DNA from: Mobula hypostoma
Lineage: Eukaryota
Reading direction: 5' to 3'
DNA: 64,000 bases
Assembly: GCF_963921235.1 (NCBI RefSeq)
Contig: NC_086097.1
Location: 114,516,001 to 114,580,000 of the forward strand
Shown here piece after piece: positions 6,915 through 61,302 of the stretch. A model generated the notes under the pieces. It was not told the origin of the DNA. It saw only the letters and a list, made by a program, of their open reading frames with translations, and did no database searches. A program made the translations under genes and the position numbers. Within the stretch, counting starts at the first letter, position 1; the number at the start of each line of letters is the position of its first letter.

Positions 6915-7850
6915 ATGCCTGCAGGGTTAGTGCTTTGTTCAGGGTGTCAGATGTGGGAATCCTGGGAGACCTCCAGCCTCCCTGATGGCCACATCTGCGC
7001 CAGGTGCACCGAGATGCAGCTCCTCAGAGACCGTGTTAGGGATCTGGGGCTGCAGCTTGATGACCTACTGCTTATCAGGGAAAGTGAAGAGGTGATAGAC
7101 AGGAGCTACAGGGAGATAGTCATCCCTAGGCTACAGGAGTCAGAAAACTGGGTCACTGTCAAGAGAGGGAAGGGAAATGCCTGGATAGTGGAGAGCACCC
7201 CTGTGACTGTCTCCTTCAGCAACAAATATCTTGTTCTAGATGCTGTTGAGGGGGATGACCTGACAGGGGACGCCCACGGTGACCAGGTCTCTGGCACTGA
7301 TCCTGGCGCTGTTGTGCAGGAGAGAAGGAGGGAGAAGAGGAATACAGTAGTCATAGGGGATTCCATAGTCAGGGGAACGGACAGGAGATTCTGTAAGCCT
7401 GGTAGAGATACCCGCATGGTGTGTTGCCTCCCAGTTGCCAGGGTACGGGATGTCTCGGATCGGGTCCAGAATAATCTGAAGGGGGAGGGTGAGCAGCCAG
7501 TTGTCTTGGTACATGTTGGTACCAATGACATAGATAGGACAAAGGAGGAGGTCCTGAAGAGAGATTTCTGGGAGTTAGGAAGGAAGCTGAGAAGCAGGGC
7601 CTCCAGGGTAGTAATCTCAGGATTGCTACCTGTGCCACGTGCTAGCGAGGGCAAGAATAGTAGGATCAGGCAGATGAATGCGTGACTGAGAGACTGGTGC
7701 AGGGGGCAGGGCTTCAGAATCTTGGATAATTGGGATCTCTTCTGGGGGAAGTATGACCTGTTCAAAATGGACAGGTTACACCTGAACCCGAAGGGGACCA
7801 GTATCCTGGTGGGAAAGTTTAATAGAGCTGTTAGGGAGGGTTTAAACTAA
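6915..7850 (+). pseudogene. CR1 ORF1 (CxxC...CxxC zinc finger, leucine zipper, SGNH/GDSL esterase); premature TGA at 7683-7685
   Basis: CSGC...CARC, VIGDSIVRG, VHVGTND; the frame continues after the stop through DRLHLN to GGT TTA AAC TAA (7848-7850). Confidence 0.92.
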
Positions 7851-10792
7851 TTTGGAAGGGGGATGGGAACCGGAATGATAGAATGGAGGAAGGGGAAAAC
7901 AGAAATAAATCTAAGATAGTGAGCAGTAAAGATGTCAGGAAAGACAGGCAGGTGATGGGGCAAATTTGTATCCATTGGGATGAGTTGCAATGCAATAAAG
8001 CTGCAGCAAAATCAAAGCGAGAAGTACCAAATACTGGTCTTAAGGTGTTGTACTTAAATGCACGCAGCATAAGAAATAAAGTGGATGATCTTGTCGTACA
8101 GCTACAGATTGGCAGGTACGATATTGTGGCCATCACTGAGACGTGGCTAAAGGATGCATGTCTCTGGGAGCTGAACGTCCAAGGATACACGGTGTATCGG
8201 AAGGATAGGAAGGTAGGCAGAGGGGGAGGCGTGGCTTTATTGGTAAGAAATGATATTAAATCATTAGAAAGAGGTGATATAGGATCGGAAGAAGCTTTAT
8301 GGGTTGAGCTAAGAAATCGCAGGAGTAAAAGGACCCAGATGGCAGTTATTTATAGGCCTCCAAACAGCTGCAGTGATGTGGACTACAAATTACAACAGGA
8401 AATAGAAAAGGCTTGTCAGAAGGGCAGTGTTATGATAATTGTGGGGGATTTTAACATGTGAGTGGATTGGAAAAATCAGGTCGGCACTGGATCTCAAGAG
8501 AGAGAATTTGTAGAATGTCTGCGAGATGGCTTTTTAGAACAGCTTGTTGTTGAGCCCACTAGGGGATCGGCTGTACTGGATTGGGTATTGTGTAATGAAC
8601 CAGAGGTAATTAGAGAGATTGAGGTGAAGGAACCCTTAGGAGACAGTGATCATAACATGATTGGGTTCACTGTGAAATTTGAAAAAGAGAAGCCGAAATC
8701 TGACGTGTCGGTATTTCAATGGAGTAAAGGAAATTACAGTGGCATGAGAGAGGAACTGGCCAAAGTTGACTGGAAAGGGACACTGGCGGGAAAGACGGCA
8801 GAGCAGCAGTGGCTGGAGTTTATGCGAGAAGTGAGGAAGGTGCAAGACAGGTATATTCCAAAAAAGAAGAAATTTTCGAATAGAAAAAGAATGCAACCGT
8901 GGTTGACAAGAGAAGTCAAAGCCAAAGTTAAAGCGAAGGAGAGGGCATACAAGGAAGCAAAAATTAGTGGGAAGACAGAGGACTGGGAAGTTTTTAAAAG
9001 CTTACAAAAGGAAACTAAGAAGGTCATTAAGAGGGAGAAGATTAACTATGAAAGGAAGCTAGCAAGTAATATCAAAGAAGATACTAAAAGCGTTTTCAAG
9101 TATATAAAGAGTAAAAGACAGGTGAGAGTAGATATAGGACCGATGGAAAATGATGCTGGAGAAATTGTAATGGGAGATAAGGAGATAGCGGAGGAACTGA
9201 ACGAGTATTTTGCATCAGTCTTCACTGAGGAAGACATCAGCAGTATACTGGACACTCAAGGGTGGCAGGGAAGAGAAGTGTGCGCAGTCACAATTACAAC
9301 AGAGAAAGTACTCAGGAAGCTGAATCGTCTAAAGGTAGATAAATCTCCTGGACCAGATGGAATGCACCCTCATGTTCTGAAGGAAGTAGCTGTGGAGATT
9401 GCGGAGGCATTAGCAATTATCTTTCGAAAGTCGATAGATTCTGGCATGGTTCCGGAGGACTGGAAGATTGCAAATGTCACTGCGCTATTTAAGAAGGGGG
9501 CAAGGAAGCAAAAAGGAAATTATAGACCTGCTAGCTTGACATCGGTGGTTGGGAAGTTGTTGGAGTCGATTGTCAAGGATGAGGTTACAGAGTACCTGGA
9601 GGCATATGAGAAGATAGGCAGAACTCAGCATGGATTCCTGAAAGGAAAATCCTGCCTGACAAACCTATTACAATTTTTTGAGGAAATTACAAGTAGGCTA
9701 GATAAGGGAGATGCAGTGGAAGTTGTATATTTGGATTTTCAGAAGGCCTTTGACAAGGTGCTACACACGAGGCTACTTAACAAGATAAGAGCCCATGGAA
9801 TTATGGGAAAGTTACATACGTGGATAGATCGTTGGCTGATTGGCAGGAAATAGAGAGTGGGAATAAAGGGATCCTATTCTGGTTGGCTGCCGGTTACCAG
9901 TGGTGTTCCACAGGGGTCCGTGTTGGGGCCGCTTCTTTTTACATTGTACATCAATGATTTGGATTATGGAATAGATGGCTTTGTGGCTAAGTTTGCTGAT
10001 GTTACGAAGATAGGTGGAGGGGCCGGTAGTGCTGAGGAAATGGAGAGTCTGCAGAGAGACTTGGATAGATTGGAAGAATGGGCAAAGAAGTGGCAAATGA
10101 AATACAATGTTGGAAAGTGTATGGTTATGCACTTTAGCAGAAGAAATAAACGGGCAGACTATTATTTAAATGGGGAAAGAATTCAAAGTTCTGAGATGCA
10201 ACGGGACTTGGGAGTCCTCGTACAGGATCCCCTTAAGGTTAACCTCCAGGTTGAGTCGGTGGTGAAGAAGGCGAATGCAATGTTGGCATTCATTTCTAGA
10301 GGAATAGAGTATAGGAGCAGGGATGTGATGTTGAGGCTCTATAAGGCGCTGGTGAGACCTCACTTGGAGTACTGTGGGCAGTTTTGGTCTCCTTATTTAG
10401 GAAAGGATGTGTTGATGTTGGAGAGGGTACAGAGAAGATTCACTAGAATGATTCCAGGAATGAGAGGGTTAACATATGAGGAACGTTTGTCCACTGTTGG
10501 ACTGTATTCCTTGGAGTTTAGAAGAATGAGGGGAGACCTCATAGAAACAATTTGAATGTTGAAAAGCATGGACAGAGTGGATGTGGCAAAGTTGTTTCCC
10601 ATGATGGGGGAGTCTAGTACGAGAGGGCATGACTTAAGGATTGAAGGGCGCCCATTCAGAACAAAAATACGAAGAAATTTTTTTAGTCAGAGGGTGGTGA
10701 ATCTATGGAATTTGTTGCCACAGGCAGCAGTGGAGGCCAAGTCATTGGGTGTATTTAAGGCAGAGATTGATAGGTATCTGATTGATAGGTAA
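7841..10792 (+). pseudogene. CR1 ORF2 (AP endonuclease + reverse transcriptase); stops at 8459, 9851 and 10553
   Basis: YLNARS, ITETW, GDFN, SDHN, KSPGPDG, QHGF, DFQKAFD, GVPQGS and FADV motifs, all in one frame. Confidence 0.95.
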
Positions 10793-13858: not shown

Positions 13859-16800
13859 TTAAGGTAGGAATGCGATGAGGTGGAGGATAAATGCGTGTCT
13901 GAGGGATTGGAGCAGGGGGCAGGGATTCAAGTTTTTGGACCATTGGGACCTCTTTTGGCGCAGGCGTGACCTGTACAAAAAGGACGGGTTACACTTGAAT
14001 CCTAGGGGGACCAATATCCTGGCAGGGAGATTAGCGGGGTCTACTGAGGTGACTTTAAACGAGAATGTTTGGGGAGTGGGAATCAAATTAAAGAGGCTAG
14101 GCGTGAGGAGGTTAGTTCACAACAGGGGGATGGGAACCAGTGCAGAGAGACAGAGGGGTGTAAAGTGAGGGTAGAAGCAAAAAGTACTAAGGAGAAAAGT
14201 AAAAGTGGCAGGCCGACAAATCCAGGGCAAGCATTAAAAAGGGCCACTTTTCAACATAATTGTATAAGGGCTAAGAGAGTTGTAAAAGAGCGCCTGAAGG
14301 CTTTGTGTGTCAATGCAAGGAGCATTCATAATAAGGTGGATGAATTGAAAGTGCAGATTGTTATTAATGATTATGATATAGTTGGGATCACAGAGACATG
14401 GCTCCAGGGTGACCAGGGATGGGAGCTCAACGTTCAGGGATATTCAATATTCAGGAGGGATAGATATGAAGGAAGGGGAGGTGGGGTGGCGTTGCTGGTT
14501 AAAGAAGAGATTAACGCAATTGAAAGGAAGGACATAAACCGGGAAGATGTGGAATCGATATGGGTAGAGCTGCGTAACACTAAGGGGCAGAAGACGCTGG
14601 TGGGAGTTGTGTACAGGCCACCTAACAGTAGTAGTGAGGTCGGAGATGGTATTAAACAGGAAATTAGAAATGTGTGCAATAAAGGAACAGCAGATATAAT
14701 GGGTGACTTCAATCTACATGTAGATTGGGTGAACCAAATTGGTAAAGGTGCTGAGGAAGAGGATTTCTTGGAATGTATGCGGGATAGTTTTTTGAACCAA
14801 CATGTCGAGGAACCAACTAGAGAGCAGGCTATTCTGGACTGGGTTTTGAGCAATGAGGAAGGGTTAATTAGCGATCTTGTCGTGAGAGGCCCCTTGGGTA
14901 AGAGTGACCATAATATGGTGGAATTCTTCATTAAGATGGAGAGTGACATAGTTAATTCAGAAACAAAGGTTCTGAACTTAAAGAGGGGTAACTTTGAAGG
15001 TATGAGACGTGAATTAGCTAAGATAGACTGGCAAATGACACTTAAAGGATTGACGGTGGATATGCAATGGCAAGCATTTAAAGATTGCATGGATGAACTA
15101 CAACAATTGTTCATCCCAGTTTGGCAAAAGAATAAATCAAGGAAGGTAGTGCACCCGTGGCTGACAAGAGAAATTAGGGATAGTATCAATTCCAAAGAAG
15201 AAGCATACAAATTAGCCAGAGAAAGTGGCTCACCTGAGGACTGGGAGAAATTCAGAGTTCAGCAGAGGAGGACAAAGGGCTTAATTAGGAAGTGGAAAAA
15301 AGATTATGAGAGAAAACTGGCAGGGAACATAAAAACTGACTGTAAAAGCTTTTATAGATATGTAAAAAGGAAAAGACTGGTAAAGACAAATGTAGGTCCC
15401 CTGCAGACAGAAACAGGTGAATTGATTATGGGGAGCAAAGACATGGCAGACCAATTGAATAATTACTTTGGTTCTGTCTTCACTAAGGAGGACATAAATA
15501 ATCTTCCAGAAATAGTAGGGGACAGAGGGTCCAGTGAGATGGAGGAACTGAGCGAAATACATGTTAGTAGGGAAGTGGTGTTGGGTAAATTGAAGGGATT
15601 GAAGGCAGATAAATCCCCAGGGCCAGATGGTCTGCATCCTAGAGTGCTTAAGGAAGTAACCCAAGAAATAGTGGATGCATTAGTGATAATTTTTCAAAAC
15701 TCTTTAGATTCTGGACTAGTTCCTGAGGATTGGAGGGTGGCTAATGTAACTCCACTTTTTAAAAAAGGAGGGAGAGCGAAACCGGGGAATTATAGACCGG
15801 TTAGCCTAATGTCGGTGGTGGGGAAACTGCTGGAGTCAGTTATCAAGGATGTGATAACAGCACATTTGGAAAGCGGTGAAATGATCGGACAAAGTCAGCA
15901 TGGATTTGTGAAAGGAAAATCATGTCTGACGAATCTCATAGAATTTTTTGAGGATGTAACTAGTAGAGTGGATAGGGGAGAAGCAGTGGATGTGGTATAT
16001 TTGGATTTTCAAAAGGCTTTTGACAAGGTCCCACATAGGAGATTAGTGTGCAAACTTAAAGCACGCGGTATTGGGGATAGGGTATTGGTGTGGGTGGAGA
16101 ATTGGTTAGCAGACAGGAAGCAAAGAGTGGGAATAAACGGGACCTTTTCAGAATGGCAGGCGGTGACTAGTGGGGTACTGCAAGGCTCAGTGCTGGGACC
16201 CCAGTTGTTTGCAATATATATTGATGACTTGGATGAGGGAATTAAATGCAGCATCTCCAAGTTTGCGGATGACACGAAGCTGGGTGGCAGTGTTAGCTAT
16301 GAGGAAGATGCTAAGAGGATGCAGGGTGACTTGGATAGGTTGGGTGAGTGGGCAAATTCATGGCAGATGCAATTTAATGTGGATAAATGTGAAGTTATCC
16401 ACTTTGGTGGCAAAAATAGGAAAACAGATTATTATCTGAATGGTGGCCGATTAGGAAAAGGGGAGGTGCAACGAGACCTGGGTGTCATTATACACCAGTC
16501 GTTGAAAGTGGGCATGCAGGTACAGCAGGCGGTGAAAAAAGCGAATGGTATGCTGGCATTTATAGCGAGAGGATTCGAGTACAGGAGCAGGGAGGTACTA
16601 CTGCAGTTGTACAAGGCCTTGGTGAGACCACACCTGGAGTATTGTGTGCAGTTTTGGTCCCCTAATCTGAGGAAAGACATCCTTGCCTTAGAGGGAGTAC
16701 AAAGAAGGTTCACCAGATTGATTCTTGGGATGGCAGGACTTTCATATGAAGAAAGACTGGATGAACTGAGCTTGTACTTGTTGGAATTTAGAAGATTGAG

Positions 16801-17208
16801 GGGGGATCTGATTGAAATGTATAAGATCCTAAAGGGATTGGACAGGCCAGATGCAGGAAGATTGTTCCCGATGTTGGGGAAGTCCAGAACGAGGGGCCAT
16901 AGTTTGAGGATAGAGGGGAAGCCTTTTAGGACTGAGATTTGGAAAAACTTCTTCACACAGAGAGTGGTGAATCTGTGGAATTCTCTGCCACAGGAAACAG
17001 TTGAGGCCAGTTCATTGGCTATATTTAAGAGGGAGTTAGATATGGCCCTTGTGGCTACGGGGGTCAGGGGGTATGGAGGGAAGGCTGGGGCAGGGTTCTG
17101 AGTTGGATGATCAGCCATGATCATAATAAATGGCGGTGCAGGCTCGAAGGGTCGAATGGCCTACTCCTGCACCTATTTTCTATGTTTCTATGTTTCTGTG
17201 TTTCTATG
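13859..17208 (+). mobile_element. CR1 LINE, 5'-truncated within ORF1, with uninterrupted ORF2
   Basis: ORF1 end (DGLHLN), 1010-codon open ORF2, 3'UTR stem ggtgcagg...cctgcacc and (tttctatg)n tail. Confidence 0.97.
14054..17101 (+). CDS. CR1 ORF2, endonuclease + reverse transcriptase; open frame with no N-terminal AUG
   Basis: VNARS, ITETW, GDFN, SDHN, QHGF, DFQKAFD, FADD. The track start at 14069 is TTG and the first ATG lies ~210 codons in (DIMGDFN). Confidence 0.9.
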   Translation, partial: FKRECLGSGNQIKEARREEVSSQQGDGNQCRETEGCKVRVEAKSTKEKSKSGRPTNPGQALKRATFQHNCIRAKRVVKERLKALCVNARSIHNKVDELKVQIVINDYDIVGITETWLQGDQGWELNVQGYSIFRRDRYEGRGGGVALLVKEEINAIERKDINREDVESIWVELRNTKGQKTLVGVVYRPPNSSSEVGDGIKQEIRNVCNKGTADIMGDFNLHVDWVNQIGKGAEEEDFLECMRDSFLNQHVEEPTREQAILDWVLSNEEGLISDLVVRGPLGKSDHNMVEFFIKMESDIVNSETKVLNLKRGNFEGMRRELAKIDWQMTLKGLTVDMQWQAFKDCMDELQQLFIPVWQKNKSRKVVHPWLTREIRDSINSKEEAYKLARESGSPEDWEKFRVQQRRTKGLIRKWKKDYERKLAGNIKTDCKSFYRYVKRKRLVKTNVGPLQTETGELIMGSKDMADQLNNYFGSVFTKEDINNLPEIVGDRGSSEMEELSEIHVSREVVLGKLKGLKADKSPGPDGLHPRVLKEVTQEIVDALVIIFQNSLDSGLVPEDWRVANVTPLFKKGGRAKPGNYRPVSLMSVVGKLLESVIKDVITAHLESGEMIGQSQHGFVKGKSCLTNLIEFFEDVTSRVDRGEAVDVVYLDFQKAFDKVPHRRLVCKLKARGIGDRVLVWVENWLADRKQRVGINGTFSEWQAVTSGVLQGSVLGPQLFAIYIDDLDEGIKCSISKFADDTKLGGSVSYEEDAKRMQGDLDRLGEWANSWQMQFNVDKCEVIHFGGKNRKTDYYLNGGRLGKGEVQRDLGVIIHQSLKVGMQVQQAVKKANGMLAFIARGFEYRSREVLLQLYKALVRPHLEYCVQFWSPNLRKDILALEGVQRRFTRLILGMAGLSYEERLDELSLYLLEFRRLRGDLIEMYKILKGLDRPDAGRLFPMLGKSRTRGHSLRIEGKPFRTEIWKNFFTQRVVNLWNSLPQETVEASSLAIFKRELDMALVATGVRGYGGKAGAGF

Positions 17209-17502
17209 TATGCATTAACAATTGATGATAACAAGATTTTTAGCATGCATCACCTGAGTGATATATGCCTAGATACTGGACTTCAGCCGTTTTGGATGAA
17301 ACATGCTAAATTGGTGCAGCTTTTGCAGTAAGACTGTAAACCATGTGAAATTGACCGAAGAGACATCTGAAGCAACATTCCAATAAATTATACACAGAAG
17401 TATGTACTATAACAGACCTGCACTGTTTCTGCAAGATCATACTTAATTTAACGCTGTTGTTGAGGTACTGCTGTACCAGTTCCAAAGGGCACACTCACAG
17501 AG

Positions 17503-17660: not shown

Positions 17661-17950
17661 AGGATAGAGGGGAAGCCTTTTAGGACTGAGATTAGGAAAA
17701 CCTTCTTCACACAGAGAGTGGTGAATCTGTGGAATTCTCTGCCACAGGAAACAGTTGAGGCCAGTTCATTGGCTATATTTAAGAGGGAGTTAGATATGGC
17801 CCTTGTGGCTACGGGGCTCAGGGGGTATGGAGGGAAGGCTGGGGTGGGGTTCTGAGTTGGATGATCAGCCATGATCATAATAAATGGCGGTGCAGGCTCG
17901 AAGGGCCGAATGGCCTACTCCTGCACCTATTTTCTATGTTTCTATGTTTC
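17661..17950 (+). mobile_element. Young CR1 3' fragment
   Basis: Near-identical to 16908-17190. Confidence 0.93.
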
Positions 17951-18439
17951 TCCTCACATTCCCGTAAACTGCAGCTGAACATCTCTCACACTTTACTGTG
18001 GTCAGTTAATGTATACCTTGGAAGAATGACGATCTAGAGGCTGCTCCAGGTGTCGTATCGAGCATGTGTCAGAGATAAGGAAGCCAGAGGCCAAGAAGGA
18101 TGCCTTGTGTGTTGGGGTCAGGAGTATTTTTTCATTAGAAAAGCGTAGATATAGGTGCAGTGAAAGCGTCTGGCAGGAGTGAGAATCTCTCAGTGTAACA
18201 ATAACAAAGAAATGTTATGACCTTCCAAAAAGCAGGAGGTTAATTGGAGTACTGACAGTTCTTTCGCAACGTTGTTTAATTAGACACACAAACACACTCA
18301 AGCCATCAGCCGCACACATTTTTATTTGCCAAATTTTTCTTCATTCATCAAGCCATACTTTACCACACCACCCTCCTTTTGCTAACAAAGTACCCCTCCA
18401 CTGCCACACAGAGCTCAAGTTTCCAAATAGACAAAAAGA

Positions 18440-28018: not shown

Positions 28019-30451
28019 ACTACTGATATCAGGCTCACTGACTCCTGGTTCATTTTTTATACAGCAAAACAACACTAACTATCCTCCAATCCTTTGGTAC
28101 CTCACCTTTTGCTAAGGGTGATTTAAACATCTCGGCTAGGGCCCCAACAATTTCTGCACTTGTTTCTCACAGGGAACACCTTATCAGGCCCTTGGGATTT
28201 ATCTCCCCTAGTTTGTCTCAAGACAGCAAACACCTCTTCTGTAACTTGTATATGGTCCATGACCTTGATGCTGCTTTGCCTCACTTCTTTAGACTCTGTG
28301 TCCTTCTCCCGAGTAAACACAGATGCAAAAAATTCATTTAAGATCTCCCCATCCCTTTCCACTCCATGCATAGATCACCAGTCCGATCTTCCAAAGGGCC
28401 AATACTGACCCTTGTTATCATTTTGCTCAATATATCTGTAGAAGCCTTTAGGGTTCTCCTTCACCTTGTCTGCTAGTGCAACCTCTTGTCTTTTTTTAGC
28501 CCTCCTGATTTTCTTCTTGAGAGTTCTCTTACATTTCTTTTACTCCTCAGGCACATCACTTGTCCCTACCTGCCTATACCTGCTATGCACCTCCTTTTTT
28601 TCTTAATCAGGGCCTCAGCATCTCTTGAAAACCAAGGTTCCCAAATGTGTTATCTTTGCCTTTTATTCTGATGGATGCATACATGATTTGTACCCTCAAA
28701 ATTTCACTTTTGAAGGCCTTCCACTTACCAGAAGATAGTACCTTTGCCAGAAAATAGCTTGTCCCAATCCACACTTGCCAGATCCCTTCTGATACCATCA
28801 AAATTGGCCTTTCTCCAATTTAGAATCGCAACCTGCAGACCAGATCTCTCTTTTTCCATATTTACTTTGAAGCTAATGGCATTATGATCATGAGATCCAA
28901 AGTGTTCCCCGACACAAACTTCTGTCACCTGCCCTGTCTCATTCCCTAATAGATCAAATACCTCACAATCTGTCATTGGGACCTCTATGTCCTATTTAAG
29001 GAAACTTGCCTGAACACATTTGATAAACTCTATCCCATCCAGTCCTTTTATAGTTTGTGAGTCCTTGTCAATATGTGGAAAGTTAAAATCACTACTCTGA
29101 CTACCTTATGTTTCTTGCAACAGTCTCCAACCTCTATACAGATTTGTTCCTCTAATTCACGCAAACTATTGGGTGGTCCATAATACAGCCCCATTAATGT
29201 GGTCATACCTTTCTTATTCCCTAATTCCACCCATAAAGCCTCACTGGATGAGTTCTCCGGGCTGGCCTGACGGAGTTGTGCAGTGACATTTCCCTTGACT
29301 AGAAATGGCACCACTCTGTTACTTCTCAAACAATGGAACCCTGGAATATTGAGCTGCCAGTCCTGCAACCAAGTCCCACTAATGACTACAATATCATAAT
29401 TCCATGTGTTGATTTATGCCCTGAGCTCATCTGCCTTTCCTAGAATACTTGCATTAAAATATACGCAGCTTAGGACACCAGTCACACCATGCTCAATCTT
29501 TTGATTCCTGACTTTGTCTGAGGTCTTAGCATCTGTCTCCACAACCTTTTCACTATCTGTTCTGGCACTCTGCTTCCCACACCCCTGCAACTCCAATTTA
29601 AACTCCTTTGTGCAGCACTAGCAAACCTTCCCACTGGAATATTAGACCCCCTCCATTTCAGGTGCAAACGGTCTCTTCTGTACAAGTGCCGCCTTCCCTG
29701 AAAGAGAGCACAGTGATCCAAAAATCTTATGCCCTCCCTCCTACACCAACTCCTTAGCCACTGTATAATCTTCCTGTTTCTGGTCTCACTAGCATGTGGC
29801 ATGGGTGGTAATCCTGAGATCACAACCTTGGATGTCCTGTCCTTTAACTCCCTGAACTCACTTTGCAGAACCTCGTCACTTTTCCTACCGATGCCATTGG
29901 TACCCACATGGACCACAACCTCCAGTTGCTCACCCTCCCACCTAGAATGCTGAGGACTCAGTCCAAGATGTCCCAGAGCTTGGCATCCGGGAGGCATCAT
30001 ACCATCTAGAAATCTCATTCTTGTCCACAGAACCTCCTTTCTGTTTTCCTAACAAATCCCCTATCACCACAGCTCATCTCCCCCTCCCTTTCCTTCCGAG
30101 TCAGAGCCAAACTCAGTGTCACAGACCTGACCGCTGTGACTTTCCTCTGCTAGGCCATCTCCCCCCTCAGCAGTATCCAAAGTGATATACCTCTTGTTGA
30201 GGGAGATGGCCAAAGGGATACTCTGCACTGGCTCCTTAACCCCTTTCCCCTTCCTGACTGTCATCCAGTCTCCTGTGTCCTGCACCTTGAGTGTAACTAC
30301 TTCTTTATATGCCCTATTTACCACCCCTTCAGCCTCCTGAATGATCTGGAGTTCATCCAGTTCCAGCTCCAACTCCTCAATGCGGAGTGTTAGAACTTGT
30401 TGCTGGATGCACTTCTTGCAGTCATAGTCATCAGAGACACTGGAGGTCTGT

Positions 30452-30684
30452 CTATAGTTGGATGCTCCTCTTGTGGGATGTGGAAAGGCCCAGACTGGGT
30501 GACAGTCAGGAAGGGGAAAGGGGTTAAGGAGCCAGTGCAGAGTACCCTGTGGCCATCCCCTTCAACAACAGGTATATCACTTTGGATACTGTTGGTGGGG
30601 GGGGGGGAATGGCCTAGCAGAGGAAAGTCACAGCGGTCAGGTCTGTGATGCGAAGTTTGGCTCTGTGTGACTCAGAAGGAAAGG
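30452..30684 (+). mobile_element. Inverted CR1 ORF1 segment
   Basis: CSSCGMW and DWVTVRKGKGVKEPVQS; reverse complement of ~30087-30270. Confidence 0.85.
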
Positions 30685-32589: not shown

Positions 32590-33079
32590 TGGAGACCAGA
32601 TTGATTCCTGGGATGGCAGGACTTTCATATGATGAAAGACTGGATCGACTAGGCCTATATTCGTTGGAATTTAGAAGATTGAGGGCGGATCTTATTGAAA
32701 TGTATAAAATCCTAAAGAGATTGGACAGGCTAGATGCAGGAAGATTGTTCCCGATGTTGGGGAAGTCCAGAACAAGGGGTCACAGTTTGAGGATAAAGGG
32801 GAAGCCTTTTAGGACCAAGATTAGGAAAAACTTCTTCACACAGAGGGTGGTGTATCTGTTAAATTCTCTGCCACAGTAAACAGTTGAGGCCAGTTCATTG
32901 GCTATTTTTAAGAGGGAGTTAGATATGGCCCTTGTGGCTAAAGGGATCGGGGGTATGGAGGGAAGGCTGTACAGGGTTCTGAGTTGGATGATCAGCCATG
33001 ATCATACTGAATGGCGGTGCAGGCTCGAAGGGCCGAATGGCCTACTCCTGCACCTATTTTCTATGTTTCTATGTTTCTA
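32590..33079 (+). mobile_element. Young CR1 3' fragment inside the Gypsy relic
   Basis: ORF2 C-terminus and (tttctatg)n tail. Confidence 0.93.
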
Positions 33080-33291
33080 TCACAGAGGAGGCTTAAGAAC
33101 CTGAGATTGCTTCACAGCCAGAAGTCTCAACTGACGAGTGGGATGACATCCTCCTTGTCAGGAAAGATGTTGTCCCAGTAGAGTCAGAAATCCTCCACAG
33201 TGATTAAATCTTTAGGCTTGAATGGGACGATTTAAAACTTACTATGGTGTGGATGTCTATATAGTAGTTGTATTATTGTAGTATACTGTGT

Positions 33292-34262
33292 GTATATATT
33301 AATGACTTAGATGAGCGAATTAAATGCATCATCTCCAAGTTTGCGGATGACACGAAGCTGGGCAGCAGTGTTGGCTGTGAGGAGAATGCTAAGAGGATGC
33401 AGGGTGACTTGGATAGGTTAGGTGAGTGGGCAAATTCATGGCAGATGAAATTTAATGTGGATAAATGTGAGGTTATCCACTTTGGTGGCAAAAACAGGAA
33501 AACAGATTATTATCTGAATGGTGGCCGATTAGGAAAAGGGGAGGTGCAACGAGACCTGGGTCATTGAAAGTTGGCATGCAGGTAGAGCAGGCGGTGAAAA
33601 AAGCGAATGGTATGCTGGCCTTCATAGCAAGAGGATTCAAGTACAGGAGCAGGGAGGTACTACTGCAGTTGTACAAGGCCTTGGTGAGACCACACCTGGA
33701 GTATTGTGTGCAGTTTTGGTCCCCTAATCTGAGGAAAGACATTCTTGCCATAGAGGGAGTACAAAGACGGTGCACCAGATTGATTCCTGGGATGGCAGGA
33801 CTTTCATATGATGAAAGACTGGATCGGCTAGGCTTATACTCGTTGGAATTTAGAAGATTGAGGGGGGATCTTATTGAAACGTATAAAATTCTAAAGGGAT
33901 TGGACAGGCTGGATGCAGGAAGATTGTTCCCGATGTTGGGGAAGACCAGAACGAGGGGTCACAGTTTGAGGATAAAGGGGATGCCTCTTAGGACCGAGAT
34001 TAGGAAAAACTTCTTCACACAGAGAGTGGTGAATCTGTGGAATTCTCTGCCACGGGAAACAGTTGAGGCCAGTTCATTGGCTATATTTAAGAGGGAGTTA
34101 GATATGGCCCTTGTGGCTAAAGGGATCAGTGGGTATGGAGAGAAGGCAGGCACAGGGTTCTGAGTTGGATGATCAGCCATGATCATACTGAATGGCGGTG
34201 AAGGCTCGAAGGGCCGAATGGCCTACTCCTGCACCTATTTTCTATGTTTCTATGTTTTTATG
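33292..34262 (+). mobile_element. Young CR1 3' fragment inside the Gypsy relic
   Basis: YINDLD...FADD through to the tail; small deletion/frameshift at ~33565. Confidence 0.94.
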
Positions 34263-34532
34263 TATAACATGACTAGAGAGCAATGCATTGCATATTTGCA
34301 TTGAGTTGGAGTTTGTAACTAAGCAGGGAGGTGTGTTGCATATTTGTAAATATATTGGTTGATTAAGCATGCTCTGTTTATTTACATAATTCATTATGGG
34401 TTATATGTAAGAAGTATGTAAATGGCACATGTTATGATGCCACCATGTCATATGTCAGCACCTCAGTAAAGTAAGATTTTCCTGGATCCTGAGATGTTTT
34501 ATCGATTAGTTTTGGAGTTACAAAATGGAACG

Positions 34533-48561: not shown

Positions 48562-48589
48562 CTGAAATAAAGAGCATAAGACATTTCAT

Positions 48590-49320
48590 AGAAACATAGA
48601 AACATAGAAAATAGGTGCAGGAGTAGGCCATTCGGCCCTTCGAGCCTGCACCACCATTTATTATGATCATGGCTGATCATCCAACTCAGAACCCCACCCC
48701 AGCCTTCCCTCCATACCCCCTGACCCCCGTAGCCACAAGGGCCATATCTAACTCCCTCTTAAATATAGCCAATGAACTGGCCTCAACTGTTTCCTGTGGC
48801 AGAGAATTCCACAGATTCACCACTCTCTGTGTGAAGAAGTTTTTCCGAATCTCGGTCCTAAAAGGCTTCCCCTCTATCCTCAAACTGTGGCCCCTCGTTC
48901 TGGACTTCCCCAACATCGGGAACAATCTTCCTGCATCTAGCCTGTCCAATCCCTTTAGGATTTTATACGTTTCAATCAGATCCCCCCTCAATCTTCTAAA
49001 TTCCAACAAGTACAAGCCCAGTTCATCCAGTCTTTCTTCATATGAAAGTCCTGCCATCCCAGGAATCAATCTGGTGAACCTTCTTTGTACTCCCTCTATG
49101 GAAAGGATGTCTTTCCTCAGATTAGGGGACCAAAACTGCACACAATACTCCAGGTGTGGTCTCACCAAGGCCTTGTACAACTGCAGTAGTACCTCCCTGC
49201 TCCTGTACTCGAATCCTCTTGCTATAAATGCCAGCATACCATTCGCCTTTTTCACCGCCTGCTGTACCTGCATGCCCACTTTCAATGACTGGTGTATAAT
49301 GACACCCAGGTCTCGTTGCA
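48590..49320 (-). mobile_element. Young CR1 3' fragment in the last TIMM21 intron, sense orientation
   Basis: Open ORF2 C-terminus 48686-49321; tail; apparent TSD TTCAT (48585-48589 and 49321-49325). Confidence 0.95.
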
Positions 49321-49779
49321 TTCATTATCAATGTGAATTTAGTTTTCTCTCATCCATTGTAACACGGCATGGAAAACAAATGGTCCTAAGGTGATGCTTA
49401 ATGCTTCTGGAATTGGTTACATCTTCTCTCAACAGCTAAAACAAGGTGAAAGACTCTGGGAATTTATTTTAAAAGTGGTGCATCCTGTTGGATTGGAAAC
49501 TTGATGGGCTTTTGTTCTGGCAAGATGCAGTCAGCGTTACTGCGAGTTTTGGGGGGGATGAATATGGAAACATTCTGTGGCCAAGACTCCTAAACGACTG
49601 CAGGCCTGTATGTGAAATATCAATGTTCCAGGGCATTTAATTCTAAATACATGTTTTAATTTTATGTGTGATTGGCAAAGGTGCAGATTTCAGTACTAAA
49701 TATTTTAGTGAACAAGTGAAATTTACTTTTAACAGTGGATAATGTATAAAGAACTTTTTAAAAATATTTTAATAGTGTA

Positions 49780-55078: not shown

Positions 55079-58000
55079 TGTTACATGCCTCAAGGAGATC
55101 TGTGTTTTTTTTTGTGAGAATGATGTAGTGGTCTTTTGAAGGTCACCTGATGTAATTTTCCCGCCGATGTGAAGGTCACGTGATGACATGTGCACACGGG
55201 TATATAAGGGTAGACCCCAGATGACGCAGTTAGTTTTTAGTTTTTAGATTTCCAGATAGAACGTGCTGTGTCTCCGTTTCTGTTGTGTGCTTGTTTTTGC
55301 GACACATTTCATTTTTAAAATGGAGTGTTGCGTTCTATTGCAAGATACAGTATTATTAGACTGGAAATTTTTGGCCAGATGTGCTGATTTTCCCTATGCC
55401 AACAGTAGAAGGGAGAGTGAAGACTTTATCGAAGTACAGGACTGAAGGATTGAGAGGAGTTGGCATCGTTCAGCAGTTTAACAAAGGATCGACCTTATTG
55501 AGTCCTCGTTGAAGGAGTAGCGACCTTTATCGGAGATAACTCTTGCCAAAAGAGCAAAGAGTTCATGCAAAGGTTTGCTCTCTCTAAAAGAAATTAAAGT
55601 CAGTTGTTTAAAGCTGTTTATTTACTGCATTGCGAATCCTTCGGACAGAACCAGCAGGAAAGTCACGTCTATGAAGAAATCCTTCTCCAGAGAAGTCTCT
55701 CCCAATTGAACGTATAAGTCTGTGGGACTTGCGAATTTACCATTTTACAAACTATATCTGACTTTACCTCTTTAAGAACTTTTTCTGCATTTAACACTTT
55801 AAGAACCAGTGCCGAGTGACCACTTGTTGAACGGCTGCATAGCAGTTAACTTCTGGTTAAGGTTTTCGTTTGTTTTTTTTCTTTATTGTTTATGTGTTTA
55901 ATAAATGTTTGGTTGTTTTTATATAACCTGTCTCGATTGATATTCATTGTTGCTGGTTACGTAACATAATCTGCGGGGGCTCACGGGTGATGTTCCGATT
56001 TTGAGTGTAAGTGCTGGTAATTGCCATTTTGATTTGGAAAAGGGAAATATCCGATTTTTTTTAGTTTGGTTGGTGTGTGTGTTGTATTCGGCAACAATGG
56101 ATATTGACGGGTTTATGGAGACGCCTAACTCGGGGTCTTTAGAGAATGCGAGAAAACCTGAGGTATTTGAGATTGCGAGGAAGTTGGATATTAAAGGAAT
56201 TACGAGGAATTCCGCCAAGGCTTTCATACAAAGAAAAATCACCGAGCACTATATTAATTTGAAATTGTTTGATGAGGAGATGTTAGGTAAGTTTGCAATG
56301 AGTAAGCTGGAAATGCAGTTACATCTTGAACAAATAAAGTTAAAGCAATTAGAAGCTGATTTGGAAGAGAGTTGGTTAGAAGCTGTAAATAAACAGAAGG
56401 AATTCGAAGCTAGGGAGGCTATTAAAATAAGGGAATTTGAAGAAAGAGAGGCTCTTAAAAAAAAAAGGAAATTTGAAGAAAAAGAAGCTGAAAACCAGAG
56501 GAAATTTGAGCTAGAGATGCAGAAATTAAAGTCCGGGAATCAGTCTTCTGGTTCTACGAAACAGTTTATTGCTAGTCGTGAGGTTATTTCGGCTCCTCCA
56601 TTTAATGAAGCTGAAGTGGACAAATATTTCCAGCATTTTGAAACTATTGCTCTAGTTTAAAGCGGCTGAAAGACCAATGGCCAGTGATGTTACAAAGTGT
56701 ACTCAAAGGCAAGGCACAACAAGTTTATACAGCTTTAGATGCTGAGCAAGCACAGGATTATGATATTGTTAAGCAGCATGTATTAAAGGTGTATGAGATG
56801 GTTCCGGAAACGTATAGAGAAAGATTGAGAAATGTGAAGAAATCGGTGGAAAAAACTTATGTGGAGTTTGCCTATGAGAAATCTGTGTGTTTTGAGAGAT
56901 GGGTTTCCTCTAAAAATGTGAATGGGGAGTACAATAAATTAAAAGAGTTGATTTTGCAGGAGGAATTTAAGAGAAGCATTCCTGTTGGAAGTGAGAACAT
57001 ACTTAAATGAACGGGACACTGCTGCATTGCAGGAGATTGCTAAGTTAGCTGATGAGTACGTTTTAATTCACAAGAATAAATTTTGTCCAGGTAAAATTTT
57101 TAAAAGGAAAAATAGCACAGAGAGTCAAGGTAAATCAGACATTAAATCTGAAGTTAGTGAGAAAAGTGAGGGTGAAGGGAGACATGTGAAGGAAAGACAT
57201 TTTGTTATTATTTGTAATTATTGTAAGAAGCCTGGACATGTAACAGCTAATTGCTTCCGATTGAAAAGGAAAGAGAAAGAAGTAGCCCCAGATACTAGTG
57301 TGCAGCATATTGAAAAAACCTGTAAAGCCACAGGGTTCAGGAAATATTAATGAAGATGTGTCAAAGTCTGACCAAGTTAAGAAGGGATATGAAAATTTTA
57401 TAACAGAAAGATTAGTATCCTTGAAAGAAGGATCCAATTCAGTACCAATAAGGATACTTAGAGATACTGGAGCTTCTCAATCACTAATATTAGACAGTGT
57501 GCTAAAGTTTAGTGATGAGTCTGACATTGGTGAGGTAAATTATATAAGAGGAGTTTGGACTGCCCTTATGCCAGCACATTTACATAGAGTAAATTTAAGG
57601 TCAGGATTAGTTACAGGGGTTGTTAAAGTAGGATTACAATCCAGTTTACCTGTGAATGATGTTTCTCTTTTGTTAGGGAATGATTTAGCAGGTGGACAAG
57701 TTTTTCCTGAAGTGCATTTGACAACAAATTCAAATTTTGAGGAACCACAGAGGGATTCTAACACAGATTCTTCCTGTGATCTAACAAGAGCTATGGCTAA
57801 AAAGACTGATGTAAAGGATGAGGTTGTTACCCATGACAGTTCAAATCAAGATTCAAATTTTGAGGATGCATCAGAAACTTTCTTACCTACATTATTTGAT
57901 CAGGATTTTGGTGGTAAGTCTGATCAGGAAGATTTGTCTTTATCTCGGAAGGAGATGAAAGCAGAGCAGGGTAGAGATCCTGTGATAGTTAAATTAAAAG

Positions 58001-61000
58001 AACAAGCTCTTCCAGATAGTGAAATTGGAATAGTACCAGTAGGATATTATTTTGAAAATGGGGTACTAATGAGAAAGTGGAGATCGCCTACAATTCCTGC
58101 TAGTGAGGAATGGGAAGTTAATCATCAGTTAGTAGTTCCTAAAATTTACCGAAATGAGATTTTAACTATGGCTCATAGTATTCCTTTGGGTGGTCATTTA
58201 GGGGTAAAGAAAACTATGAAACATAGAAACATAGAAAATAGAAAGAATAGAATAGAAAGAACAAAGTTTCTAAACATTTTTATTGGCCTAATTTAAGACA
58301 AGATGTTGCAACATTTTGTAGAACGTGTCATACGTGTCAAATTGTGTGTAAACCTAATCAGGTTAGCCAGTGGCCCCACTGCAACCAATTCCAGTATTCG
58401 GTGAGCCATTCTCAAAAATCATTGTAGACTGTGTAGGTCCATTGCCAAAAACTAAAACTGGACATCAATATTTATTAACTATTATGGGCACAGCGTCTAG
58501 GTTTCCAGAGGCAGTACCTCTTAGGAATATAACAGCCAAAACTATGACAAAGGCTCTTATAAAATGTTTTACTTATTTTGGGTTGCCTAAAGAAATACAA
58601 TCAGATCAAGGTAGTAATTTTATGTCTGGGTTGTTTCAGCAGATAGTTTATAAACTGGGAGCAAAACAGATAATTTCCTCAGCCTATCATCCAGAAGCAC
58701 AAGGAGCTTTGGAGAGATTTCATTCTACACTAAAAACTATGATTAGGACATATTGTGTGGAAAATGAAAAGGACTGGGATGAAGGTATACATTTACTACT
58801 TTTTGCAGTAAGTGAGGCAGTACAGGAATCATTAGATTTTAGTCCTTTTGAACTTGTGTTTGGACATAGAGTTTGAGGACCTTTGGCCTTGTTGAGGGAA
58901 CAGTGGATTAATAAAGAAGTACACACTAATTTTCTAGATTATGTTTTAAAATTTAAAGAAAGATTGTATAAAGCTTGTAGCTTGGCCAAGGAAAATTTAA
59001 AATTAGCTCAAGAGAAGATGAAGACTTGGTATTATAAGGAAGCTAGGATGAGGTCATTTAAGCCTGGAGATAAGGTGTTGGTTCTTTTCCCAGTGCAAAC
59101 GAACCTGTTACAAGCTAAATTTCATGGTCCTTATCAGATTAAATCTAAGGTAAATGATGTAGATTATGTGGCAAAAACGCCAGATCAGAGAAAGACAGCA
59201 CAGCTGTGTCATATAAATATGATAAAACCGTATTATGAGAGAGAAGATGCTATTATGACTGTTGTGATCAATAATGAGTCTGATCTTGATAAAAACTTAA
59301 CGGAGGATTCATCTGAAACTCAGTTTAAACCCAACATTATTTCAGTCAGGTTACCAAATTCAAAAATTCTAGAAAATATTGATGAAAAATTAGCTCATTT
59401 ACAGCCACAGCAGAGACAGCAGATGAAACAATTAATTTTTAAATATAGAGATTTATTTCCAGACGTCCCTAGAAGAACCACCGTAGCTACGCATGATGTA
59501 GTGTTGGAGATGCAAAACCAATAAAACAACATCCGTATCGAATGAACAGGGAAAAATGTGAACTTGCTGAACAAGAAATTAAGTATATGTTAGAGAATGA
59601 TATTATTAGACATTCTAATTCGAATTGGAGTTCCGCATGTGTTATGGTGCCTAAGCCAGACAATAGTATTAGGTTTTGTACGGATGACAGAAAGGTGAAT
59701 GCTGTGACAAAAACTGATGCATATCCAATCCCTAGGGTAGATGATTGTATGGGTAAAGTTGGACAGGCCAAATTCCTTACAAAAATTGATTTGTTAAAAG
59801 GTTATTGGTGTGTTCCATTGACGGATAGAGGTAGAGAGATTTCAGCATTTGTAACCCCATCTGGGTTATATGAGTATAATGTTCTTCCATTTGGGATGAA
59901 GAATGCACCAGGTATTTTTCAGAGGAGGATTAATAGTGTGATTCAGGGATTAAAAGATACAGATGCCTATATTGATGATTTAGTTACTGGAAATAATACG
60001 TGGAGGGCACATATTACTGCAGTGGAGGAACTATTTGAGAGACTTCCAAAAGTTAGCTTAACTATTAACTTAGTTAAAAGTGAATTTGGTCATGCCACTG
60101 TGACTGTTAAAGAAAAGGGTTAAGGAAATTAGACTCCAATTTAATAACACAGTCTAATGTTACAGGAGTACAATATTCTGATCACTCATATTAAGGGTAA
60201 AGATAATGTGATTGCTGATTGTTTATCTAGATGTTAAATGAACAATGAAAATTTGTTTTTTTTTGGAATGGTATTTTCACATTTGTAACACTCCTACTGT
60301 ACATTAGTTAGTAAAGTGCTGAAAGATAAGACTATATATATTATGTTGTAAGTTTTATACCTTTGTATTTTTTTTGTAAATTGTTAATTCTTAAAATTTT
60401 GTTCTTTAAAAGACCAATTTTTTTTTGGAGGTAGGTGTTACATGCTCAAGGAGATCTTTTTTTTGTGAGAATGATGTAATGGTCTTTTGGAGGTCACCTG
60501 ATGTAATGTCATGTGATGACATGTGCACCACGGTATAGAAGGGTAGACCCCAGATGATGCAGTGAGTTCTTAGTTTGTAGATTTCCAGGTAGAATGTGCT
60601 GTGCCTCCATTTCTGTTGCGTGTTTGTTTTTGTGACGCAGTTTCATCTTTAAAACGGAGTGTTGCATTCTATTGCAAGATACAATATTATTGGACAGGAA
60701 ATTTTTGGCCAGATGTGCTCATTTACCCTATGCCAGCAGTAGAAGGGAGAGTGAAGACTTTATTGAAGTACAGGACCGAAAGATTGAGAGGAGTCGGCAT
60801 CGTTCGGCAGTTTAACAAAGGATCGACCTTATTGAGTCTTCGTTGAAGGAGTAGCGACCTGCATCGGAGATAACTTTTGCCAAAAGAGCGAAGAGTTCAT
60901 GCAAAGGTTTGTTCTCTCTAAAAGAAATTAAGGTCAGTTGTTTTAAACTGTTTATTTACTGCATTGTGAATCATTCGAACAGAACCAGCAGGAAAGTCGC

Positions 61001-61302
61001 GTCTATGAAGAAATCCTTTTCCAGAGAAGTCTCTCCCAATTGAATGTATAAATCTGTGGGACTTTCGAAGTTACCATTTTACGAACTATATCTGACTTTA
61101 CCTCTTTAAGAACTGTTTCTGCATTTAACACTTTAAGAACCAGTGCCGAGTGACGACTTGTTGAACAGCTGAATAGCAGTTAACTTCCGGTTAAGGTTTT
61201 TGTTTGTTTTTTTTCTTTGTCGTTTATCTGTGTTTAATAAATGTTTGGTTGTTTTTATATAACCTGTCTCGATTGATATTCATTGTTGCCGGTTATGTAA
61301 CA
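55079..61302 (+). mobile_element. Gmr1-like Ty3/Gypsy retrotransposon (gag-PR-IN-RT-RH order), degenerate
   Basis: LTRs 55079-55966 and 60436-61302 (TGTTACAT...[A/C]GTAACA-type ends); TSD CTGAC; gggggctc tRNA-Pro-like PBS remnant. Gag CNYCKKPGHVTANC, PR RDTGAS, IN (GHLG, DCVGPLP, SDQGSNF, ERFHSTLK, GPY) upstream of RT (YIDD); RNase H largely deleted. Confidence 0.97.
58219..58260 (-). repeat. CR1 tail-only micro-insertion in the Gmr1 integrase
   Basis: gaaacatagaaacatagaaaatag, identical to the young CR1 3' end, plus tagaa repeats; interrupts GHLGVKKTM|NKVSKHFYWP. Confidence 0.8.

Follow-up and report, generated by a model that had tools for sequence, protein, structure and literature searches.

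A conserved slippery heptamer and downstream G-run at the ORF1-ORF2 junction of CR1 LINEs: a candidate signal for programmed -1 ribosomal frameshifting

The retroviral gag-pol arrangement, like that of the CR1 LINEs, places a structural ORF upstream of a polymerase ORF in the -1 frame, and in Rous sarcoma virus the shift site abuts the gag stop codon. The 1a/1b junction of the coronavirus IBV likewise has its polymerase ORF in the -1 frame, with an in-phase heptamer, U_UUA_AAC, that is identical to the one found in CR1. The CR1 junction differs from both of these in belonging to a non-LTR retrotransposon and in that no conserved downstream stem-loop was found at it. This heptamer is among the most shift-prone for mammalian ribosomes (PMC5009743). 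In the frameshift at the PRRSV nsp2 site, stimulation is by nsp1beta/PCBP acting on CCCANCUCC, an unstructured, protein-bound motif located 11 nt 3' of the shift site (PMC5009743). Both the PRRSV and the CR1 sites have a short motif from nucleotide 11 past the shift site, but that of CR1 is G-rich and the likeness is positional only.

CR1-group elements are the dominant retrotransposons of most vertebrates (PMC13343379), and reviews describe the translation of ORF2 in bicistronic LINEs as ‘unclear or unconventional’, with reinitiation as the working model. SART1 couples its ORFs through a UAAUG, L1 uses an unconventional initiation of ORF2, and both reinitiate (PMC3708506, PMC2881922). These elements share with CR1 a bicistronic LINE RNA in which ORF2 is tied to the end of ORF1, and a UAAUG is seen in a few shark CR1s. 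Unlike SART1 and L1, CR1 has no conserved start codon, displays a conserved slippery heptamer and would produce a fusion protein. Canonical vertebrate CR1s are described as combining an esterase ORF1, an ORF2 with APE endonuclease and reverse transcriptase (RT), 5' truncation and a repeat-type 3' end (PMC13343379, PMC4316615, PMC3905857). A word search of the available text of these three papers did not recover ‘frameshift’, and the junction signal described below is present in their data but not discussed in that text; nor does a 2016 review mention CR1 within 300,000 characters of its text. We found no report of CR1 frameshifting in the literature searched, to which the founding CR1 papers (Haas 1997/2001, Kajikawa 1997, Kapitonov and Jurka 2003) and the Repbase reports do not belong, and the novelty of the signal is provisional.

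The junction of a CR1 copy from Mobula hypostoma

The window analysed here is a 64,000-nt stretch of the Mobula hypostoma genome (NC_086097.1, positions 114,516,001 to 114,580,000), in whose coordinates a CR1 LINE copy, hereafter copy B, extends from about 13864 to 17209 on the + strand. Copy B is 5'-truncated at about 13864: loose contig ends at this point continue as ORF1 sequence in other copies, and in copy B no more than about 65 codons of ORF1 are left. This remnant (13864..14060, +) encodes the C-terminal end of an SGNH esterase, as indicated by tblastn, a weak Pfam Lipase_GDSL_2 match below the cut-off, and a match to the Mobula hypostoma ORF1 protein P0009. The latter is identical to the remnant at 62 of 65 residues, terminates in …TLN and carries PF13472, indicating that copy B has the esterase ORF1 of a canonical CR1; among named sequences, Hypanus, Mobula and Leucoraja supply the best homologues of this ORF1. 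The ORF2 frame (14048..17101, +), which lies in -1 relative to ORF1 and spans 1017 codons from stop to stop, encodes an APE endonuclease and an RT (Pfam Exo_endo_phos and RVT_1; PF03372/PF14529 and PF00078, all above their cut-offs). The 3' UTR (17102..17209, +) ends in imperfect 8-nt repeats without a poly(A); this short tandem-repeat terminus and the 5' truncation are likewise those of canonical CR1s. In a midpoint-rooted endonuclease tree built without Repbase references, copy B belongs to a starred clade of 23 rows that includes proteins of rays, frogs and birds and excludes the frame-0 elements considered further below. The window also contains five 3' fragments that are 92-98% identical to copy B (655-1095, 17661-17951, 32595-33080, 33283-34263 and 48587-49321); the subfamily is therefore young and abundant.

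The preliminary description had placed a slippery heptamer of the form X XXY YYZ, T_TTA_AAC, at 14054..14060 (+) in the phase of ORF1, and a direct reading of the frame as T TTA AAC at the end of …E-V-T-L-N bears this out. Its further statements on ORF2 also hold: the -1 frame, said to be open for more than 1000 codons up to 17101, is so from 14048 onwards, and codon 218, at 14699, is the first in-frame ATG, just before the GDFN motif and thus, as had been stated, inside the endonuclease domain and past NARS and ETW. The codon that follows the heptamer in copy B, GAG (14061..14063, +), had been supposed to derive from a TAG. This proved correct, with a T at 14061 in at least 99.6% of the contig depth in each of four runs (X1 0.998, X5 0.996, X9 1.0, X15 1.0). 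Hence, the ORF1 stop of the family directly adjoins the heptamer, and the GAG is a change private to copy B. Among the rows listed for the contigs of these runs, there is no variant of the heptamer itself. In these statements the state of the family is that seen in the contigs of four of 24 runs, contig depth is not copy number, and variant counts refer to the rows listed, beside which stand 38 variant rows of lower support. An out-of-frame AUG at 14065 was rejected as a start, as it opens merely an 8-codon mini-frame in +1.

Two further CR1 junctions are present in the window. In the first, at 7841..7861 (+) in a copy termed A, T_TTA_AAC is followed by TAA and by a G-run at the same spacing as in copy B; here, ORF1 occupies 6915-7850, and ORF2, in the -1 frame, is broken by stops and has two in-frame ATGs in its linker. 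The second, at 29582..29602 (-) in the decayed copy C, reads T_TTA_AAT (29602-29596, -) and TGG, again with an equally spaced G-run, and its -1 linker of 49 codons is open and ATG-free. Thus, all three CR1 junctions of the window conform to T_TTA_AAY. The pattern of heptamer, 10 nt and GGGG has three matches in the window, each of them a CR1 junction, against an expectation of 0.06 and with none of 100 shuffles reaching three; as the pattern was derived from these very junctions, the statistic is a measure of specificity and not of discovery. At the 5' end of copy C, 30492-30684 is an inverted, 88% identical duplicate of 30087-30271, as in insertion-time inversion. Elsewhere in the window, 55079-61302 is an element between 90% identical direct repeats of ~890 nt, whose broken frames include integrase domains with an RT piece downstream of the integrase; we read it as a decayed LTR retroelement in which either the domains are unusually ordered or another element is nested.

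Conservation of the heptamer and the G-run

To examine the junction more widely, we used 62 metagenome loci that had been fetched through ORF1 protein patterns upstream of the junction, blind to the heptamer. Ten of these are CR1-type loci with the ORF1 end covered, eight end before or inside the junction (L003, L011-L014, L016, L022 and L029) and nine are other esterase elements with an ORF2 (L005, L006, L019, L023, L026, L031, L037, L040 and L061); the remainder, without an ORF2 match, were set aside. The ten CR1-type loci show TTTAAAC in eight cases, TTTAAAT in one and a decayed T/A run in one (L008); the last was excluded as decayed, leaving nine loci that, with the three junctions of the window, make up 12 tabulated junctions. 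In all 12 Leu is encoded by TTA with a T immediately before it, and in 10 Asn is encoded by AAC. The background in the same elements is 0.18-0.28 for T at fourfold sites, 0.03-0.62 for TTA among Leu codons (0.14 in the ORF2 of copy B) and 0.31-0.75 for AAC, and a conserved Leu 22 codons upstream of the heptamer is TTA in none of nine. These positions of the heptamer are free, in the sense that changes at them are synonymous or nearly so, and the endonucleases of the tabulated loci share no more than about 35-58% identity with the copy B enzyme. The counts are not independent because the junctions share descent; in this sample, nucleotide conservation at the junction goes beyond what coding requires.

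Published consensus sequences provide a second source, namely the 1,003 elements in Supplementary Table 2 of PMC13343379, of which the first 400 nt of each entry were searched. Here, TTTAAACTA has 23 matches, 17 of them at ORF1 ends, and TTTAAACTG has seven, two of them at ORF1 ends; a further junction row recovered with upstream anchors brings the TTTAAAC junction rows to 20. Their hosts, inferred from the row prefixes, are alligator, crocodile, bearded dragon, bullfrog, coelacanth, bowfin, a teleost, elephant shark, sharks and rays. These positive counts are selected on the motif, and a search with eleven synonymous variant strings of the heptamer served as the control: within the same part of the table it returned 23 matches, none at a junction. 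As the consensus rows have dropped columns, they were excluded from frame and stop counts. No CR1 junction was recovered from the viral contigs searched or from a scan of genome contigs, the latter returning 30 loci under bacterial titles, at 24-34% identity.

The second conserved feature is a G-run, at 14071..14081 (+) in copy B, which we regard as a candidate 3' stimulator. In 11 of the 12 junctions at least four G residues start exactly 10 nt past the heptamer, and the Gly codon inside the run is GGG in all 11, against a background of 0.21-0.42. Of the features expected of a frameshift site, the X XXY YYZ heptamer in phase and a -1 frame open from the heptamer (8 of 10 linkers) are present, but a stem-loop 5-9 nt downstream was not found: folding of 11 junctions at two lengths detected no conserved hairpin and no shared fold (z from -1.8 to +2.0, pseudoknots being outside the model). 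The lack of a hairpin or other established stimulator is the main gap of the frameshift model. G4Hunter places the junctions at the 90th-99.9th percentile, but a quadruplex is predicted in only three of the 11, and L002, L007, L018 and L048 have a single G-run each; natural quadruplex stimulators of frameshifting have been anticipated but are not known (PMC5009743). A search for a long-range partner of the G-motif yielded none shared across five elements; a match in the 3' UTR of copy B was discarded, as it is not repeated in the other four. The linker of copy B has a second copy of the junction G-motif at 14123-14140, 54 nt (18 codons) past the first and without a heptamer, which is matched by the junctions of other subfamilies; it may be a relic of a junction duplication or an ORF1 swap in which the -1 phase was kept.

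Based on the above, we propose that canonical esterase-ORF1 CR1 LINEs probably express ORF2 by programmed -1 ribosomal frameshifting, which would generate an ORF1-ORF2 fusion. The ribosome would meet U_UUA_AAC at the last two codons of ORF1, with the stop codon next. The majority would terminate there and free ORF1p, and a minority would slip back by one base, the Leu tRNA moving from UUA to UUU and the Asn tRNA from AAC to AAA, to translate a free linker of 38-90 codons followed by the endonuclease and the RT. In the subfamily of copy B the predicted product is a fusion of about 1320 residues (311 + 1013). The adjacent stop, together with the G-run after its fixed 10-nt spacer, would supply the pause, the latter probably by being bound by a protein or folded as a quadruplex rather than as a hairpin. 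We favour frameshifting because it explains at once why the heptamer is fixed, why a stop adjoins it, why ORF2 has this phase and why no start codon is conserved.

The linker and the initiation of ORF2

In copy B, the ORF2-frame linker between the heptamer and the N of NARS (14060..14311, +) has 86 codons and is free of stops and ATGs. The preliminary description held it to be unrelated to the linker of the 7.8-kb copy (copy A) except for the G-run, and we accordingly obtained no alignment between them beyond the G-rich motif. The openness of all 86 codons has a shuffle probability of 0.002, and the absence of ATG one of 0.15. A single change, G>A at 14165, converts linker codon 40 from GTG to an in-frame ATG with an A at -3. 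By contig depth, this ATG accounts for 23% in X1, 97% in X5, 0% in X9 and 12% in X15; the GTG/ATG share thus differs sharply between organisms, and the accompanying variants suggest several young sub-lineages. In organism A most of the depth, 77% in X1 and 88% in X15, belongs to the form without the AUG. In X9, the sole contig form spanning the full junction has 12 differences from copy B across 13864-14760, none of which creates an ATG, and in X1 the variant tallies leave room for minor unlisted ATG-making changes at 14089, 14266 and 14294 only.

It follows that the lack of an AUG is genuine, and that it is widely shared instead of being confined to copy B: it is the majority state in X1 and X15, and not the loss, in this copy, of a consensus AUG upstream of VNARS, the finding that the preliminary description had named as fatal to its argument. 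Its claim that ORF2 has no usable AUG stands for copy B and for the majority form, but does not extend to the whole subfamily, given the 14165 ATG in a sister variant. It had also taken the missing AUG as independent support for frameshifting or non-AUG reinitiation. Ordinary AUG initiation is indeed unlikely, but taken alone the argument, although valid, is weak because 15% of shuffles are ATG-free, an AUG-bearing sister form exists and many CR1 linkers have an AUG. Moreover, it does not separate frameshifting from non-AUG reinitiation; what separates frameshifting from reinitiation is the heptamer fixed at synonymous positions, together with the fixed G-run.

Between the heptamer and the first catalytic Asn, the linkers of the different loci range from 38 to 90 codons and are mutually unrelated in sequence. 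Eight of the 10 with an endonuclease in reach are in -1 phase and stop-free, with 3-10 stops in the +1 frame, and the other two (L018 and L048) are out of phase. In 8 of the 12 junctions the -1 frame opens just 1-5 codons upstream of the heptamer. An ATG is absent from four of the eight open linkers and in the other four first appears 4-22 codons in, at no constant place. Predicted ORF2 proteins likewise have their Met anywhere from 1 to about 100 residues ahead of NARS, with no common place (15-29 residues in stork gene models), bearing in mind that gene callers bias starts.

The openness of the linker fits frameshifting and immediate reinitiation alike. The latter, in which translation would resume in the -1 frame directly at the ORF1 stop or shortly past it, on an AUG if available (as in SART1) and otherwise on a non-AUG codon (as in L1), with the G-run and a downstream UGGGA holding the ribosome, is an unlikely account of the CR1 junction, albeit one with real precedent. 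Calicivirus-type UGGGA tethers lie upstream of the restart site, unlike the G-motif of CR1, which is downstream of the stop. Reinitiation is a known mode for SART1 and L1 (PMC3708506, PMC2881922, PMC5009743). A UAAUG over the ORF1 stop is seen in 3 of the 20 published junction rows, all shark consensus sequences (PMC13343379), and L001 has an in-frame ATG 2 nt past the stop; on the other hand, UAAUG is absent at the ORF1 stop of copy B and in all 12 tabulated junctions. In the -1 frame, the codon over the stop is CUA in most cases and is followed by differing codons (GAA, GAT, GGT, ATT and others), which amounts to no conserved start. Reinitiation also leaves the fixed base before Leu and the fixed TTA and AAC codons unexplained. 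Frameshifting and reinitiation may both coexist in CR1s.

A different reading regards the heptamer as a by-product: ORF1p would need a C-terminal Leu-Asn, the DNA would be kept by descent, and ORF2 would start at a linker AUG or near-cognate codon, such as the GTG or ATG at 14165 with its A at -3, through leaky scanning or a shorter RNA. Linker AUGs are indeed frequent, and 42 of 69 ORF1 homologues, counted by eye, have L-N at the junction. Yet related esterases terminate in other residues, synonymous sites a few codons upstream vary freely where those of the heptamer do not, the frame is open from the heptamer to the first AUG, including all 86 linker codons in copy B, and the GGG bias of the G-run departs from background, all of which render this reading improbable. 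Finally, it is hardly credible that the motif serves to join an upstream AUG to ORF2, whether as a splice acceptor (CTAG/G) or through polymerase slippage: a TAG followed by G or A does resemble a YAG acceptor in many copies, but copy A, L024 and many of the published rows have TAA or TGA as the stop, so that the AG of the acceptor is gone, there is no pyrimidine tract, the homopolymer runs of the heptamer are only 3 nt with the G-run lying past the stop, and, as weak evidence from contigs, the rows listed for the possibly-RNA run X15 include no joint at the junction.

Esterase LINEs without the heptamer

The programmed frameshift proposed for canonical CR1s finds a contrast group in esterase LINEs that lack the heptamer. 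In L005, L006, L023, L037/L040 and L061, as well as in L026 and L031, which have lesions, ORF2 follows the ORF1 stop in frame 0 (positions 1818 in L005, 1827 in L006, 2049 in L023, 1266 in L026, 2216 in L037 and 452 in L061), and in four of them the stop is UGA-C. L061 has no Met until inside the endonuclease core, and L019 differs from the rest in having a separate Met-led ORF2. Five frame-0 elements are included in the midpoint-rooted endonuclease tree, where they lie outside the clade of copy B, which holds all the heptamer rows. Hence, within this small sample, the heptamer and the -1 arrangement go together. Judging from their frames, it is possible that the frame-0 elements use stop-codon readthrough.

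More tentatively, and with a good deal of doubt, we suggest that recoding might be general among the esterase-ORF1 LINEs, whose polymerase would then be translated as an ORF1-ORF2 fusion in the manner of retroviral Gag-Pol. Canonical CR1s would shift to -1 at U_UUA_AAC, helped by an unstructured G-run stimulator that jawed vertebrates have in common, and their relatives would read through one stop codon, often UGA-C. Whether bound by a protein or folded as a quadruplex, the G-run would in that case be a natural stimulator open to host control. If CR1s do frameshift, their enzyme would join esterase, endonuclease and RT in one protein, whose ratio to ORF1p would be fixed, ORF2 annotations that begin at the first Met would be wrong, and constructs for testing CR1 activity would need to include the junction, whose signal spans about 25 nt. 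A frameshift would also offer a candidate stimulator without a hairpin.

Two minor observations concern the spread of these elements. L002, L007 and L018 represent a divergent CR1 lineage, with an ORF2 about 40% identical to that of copy B, which does not group with the named vertebrate rows and in which the heptamer and the spacing of the G-run are kept; from this lineage, the signal may predate the vertebrates. Further, P0021 and P0076 are homologues of CR1 ORF1/ORF2 recorded under bacterial names (Pseudomonas and Carnobacterium) on contigs of 3-4 kb, and these records are probably host DNA.
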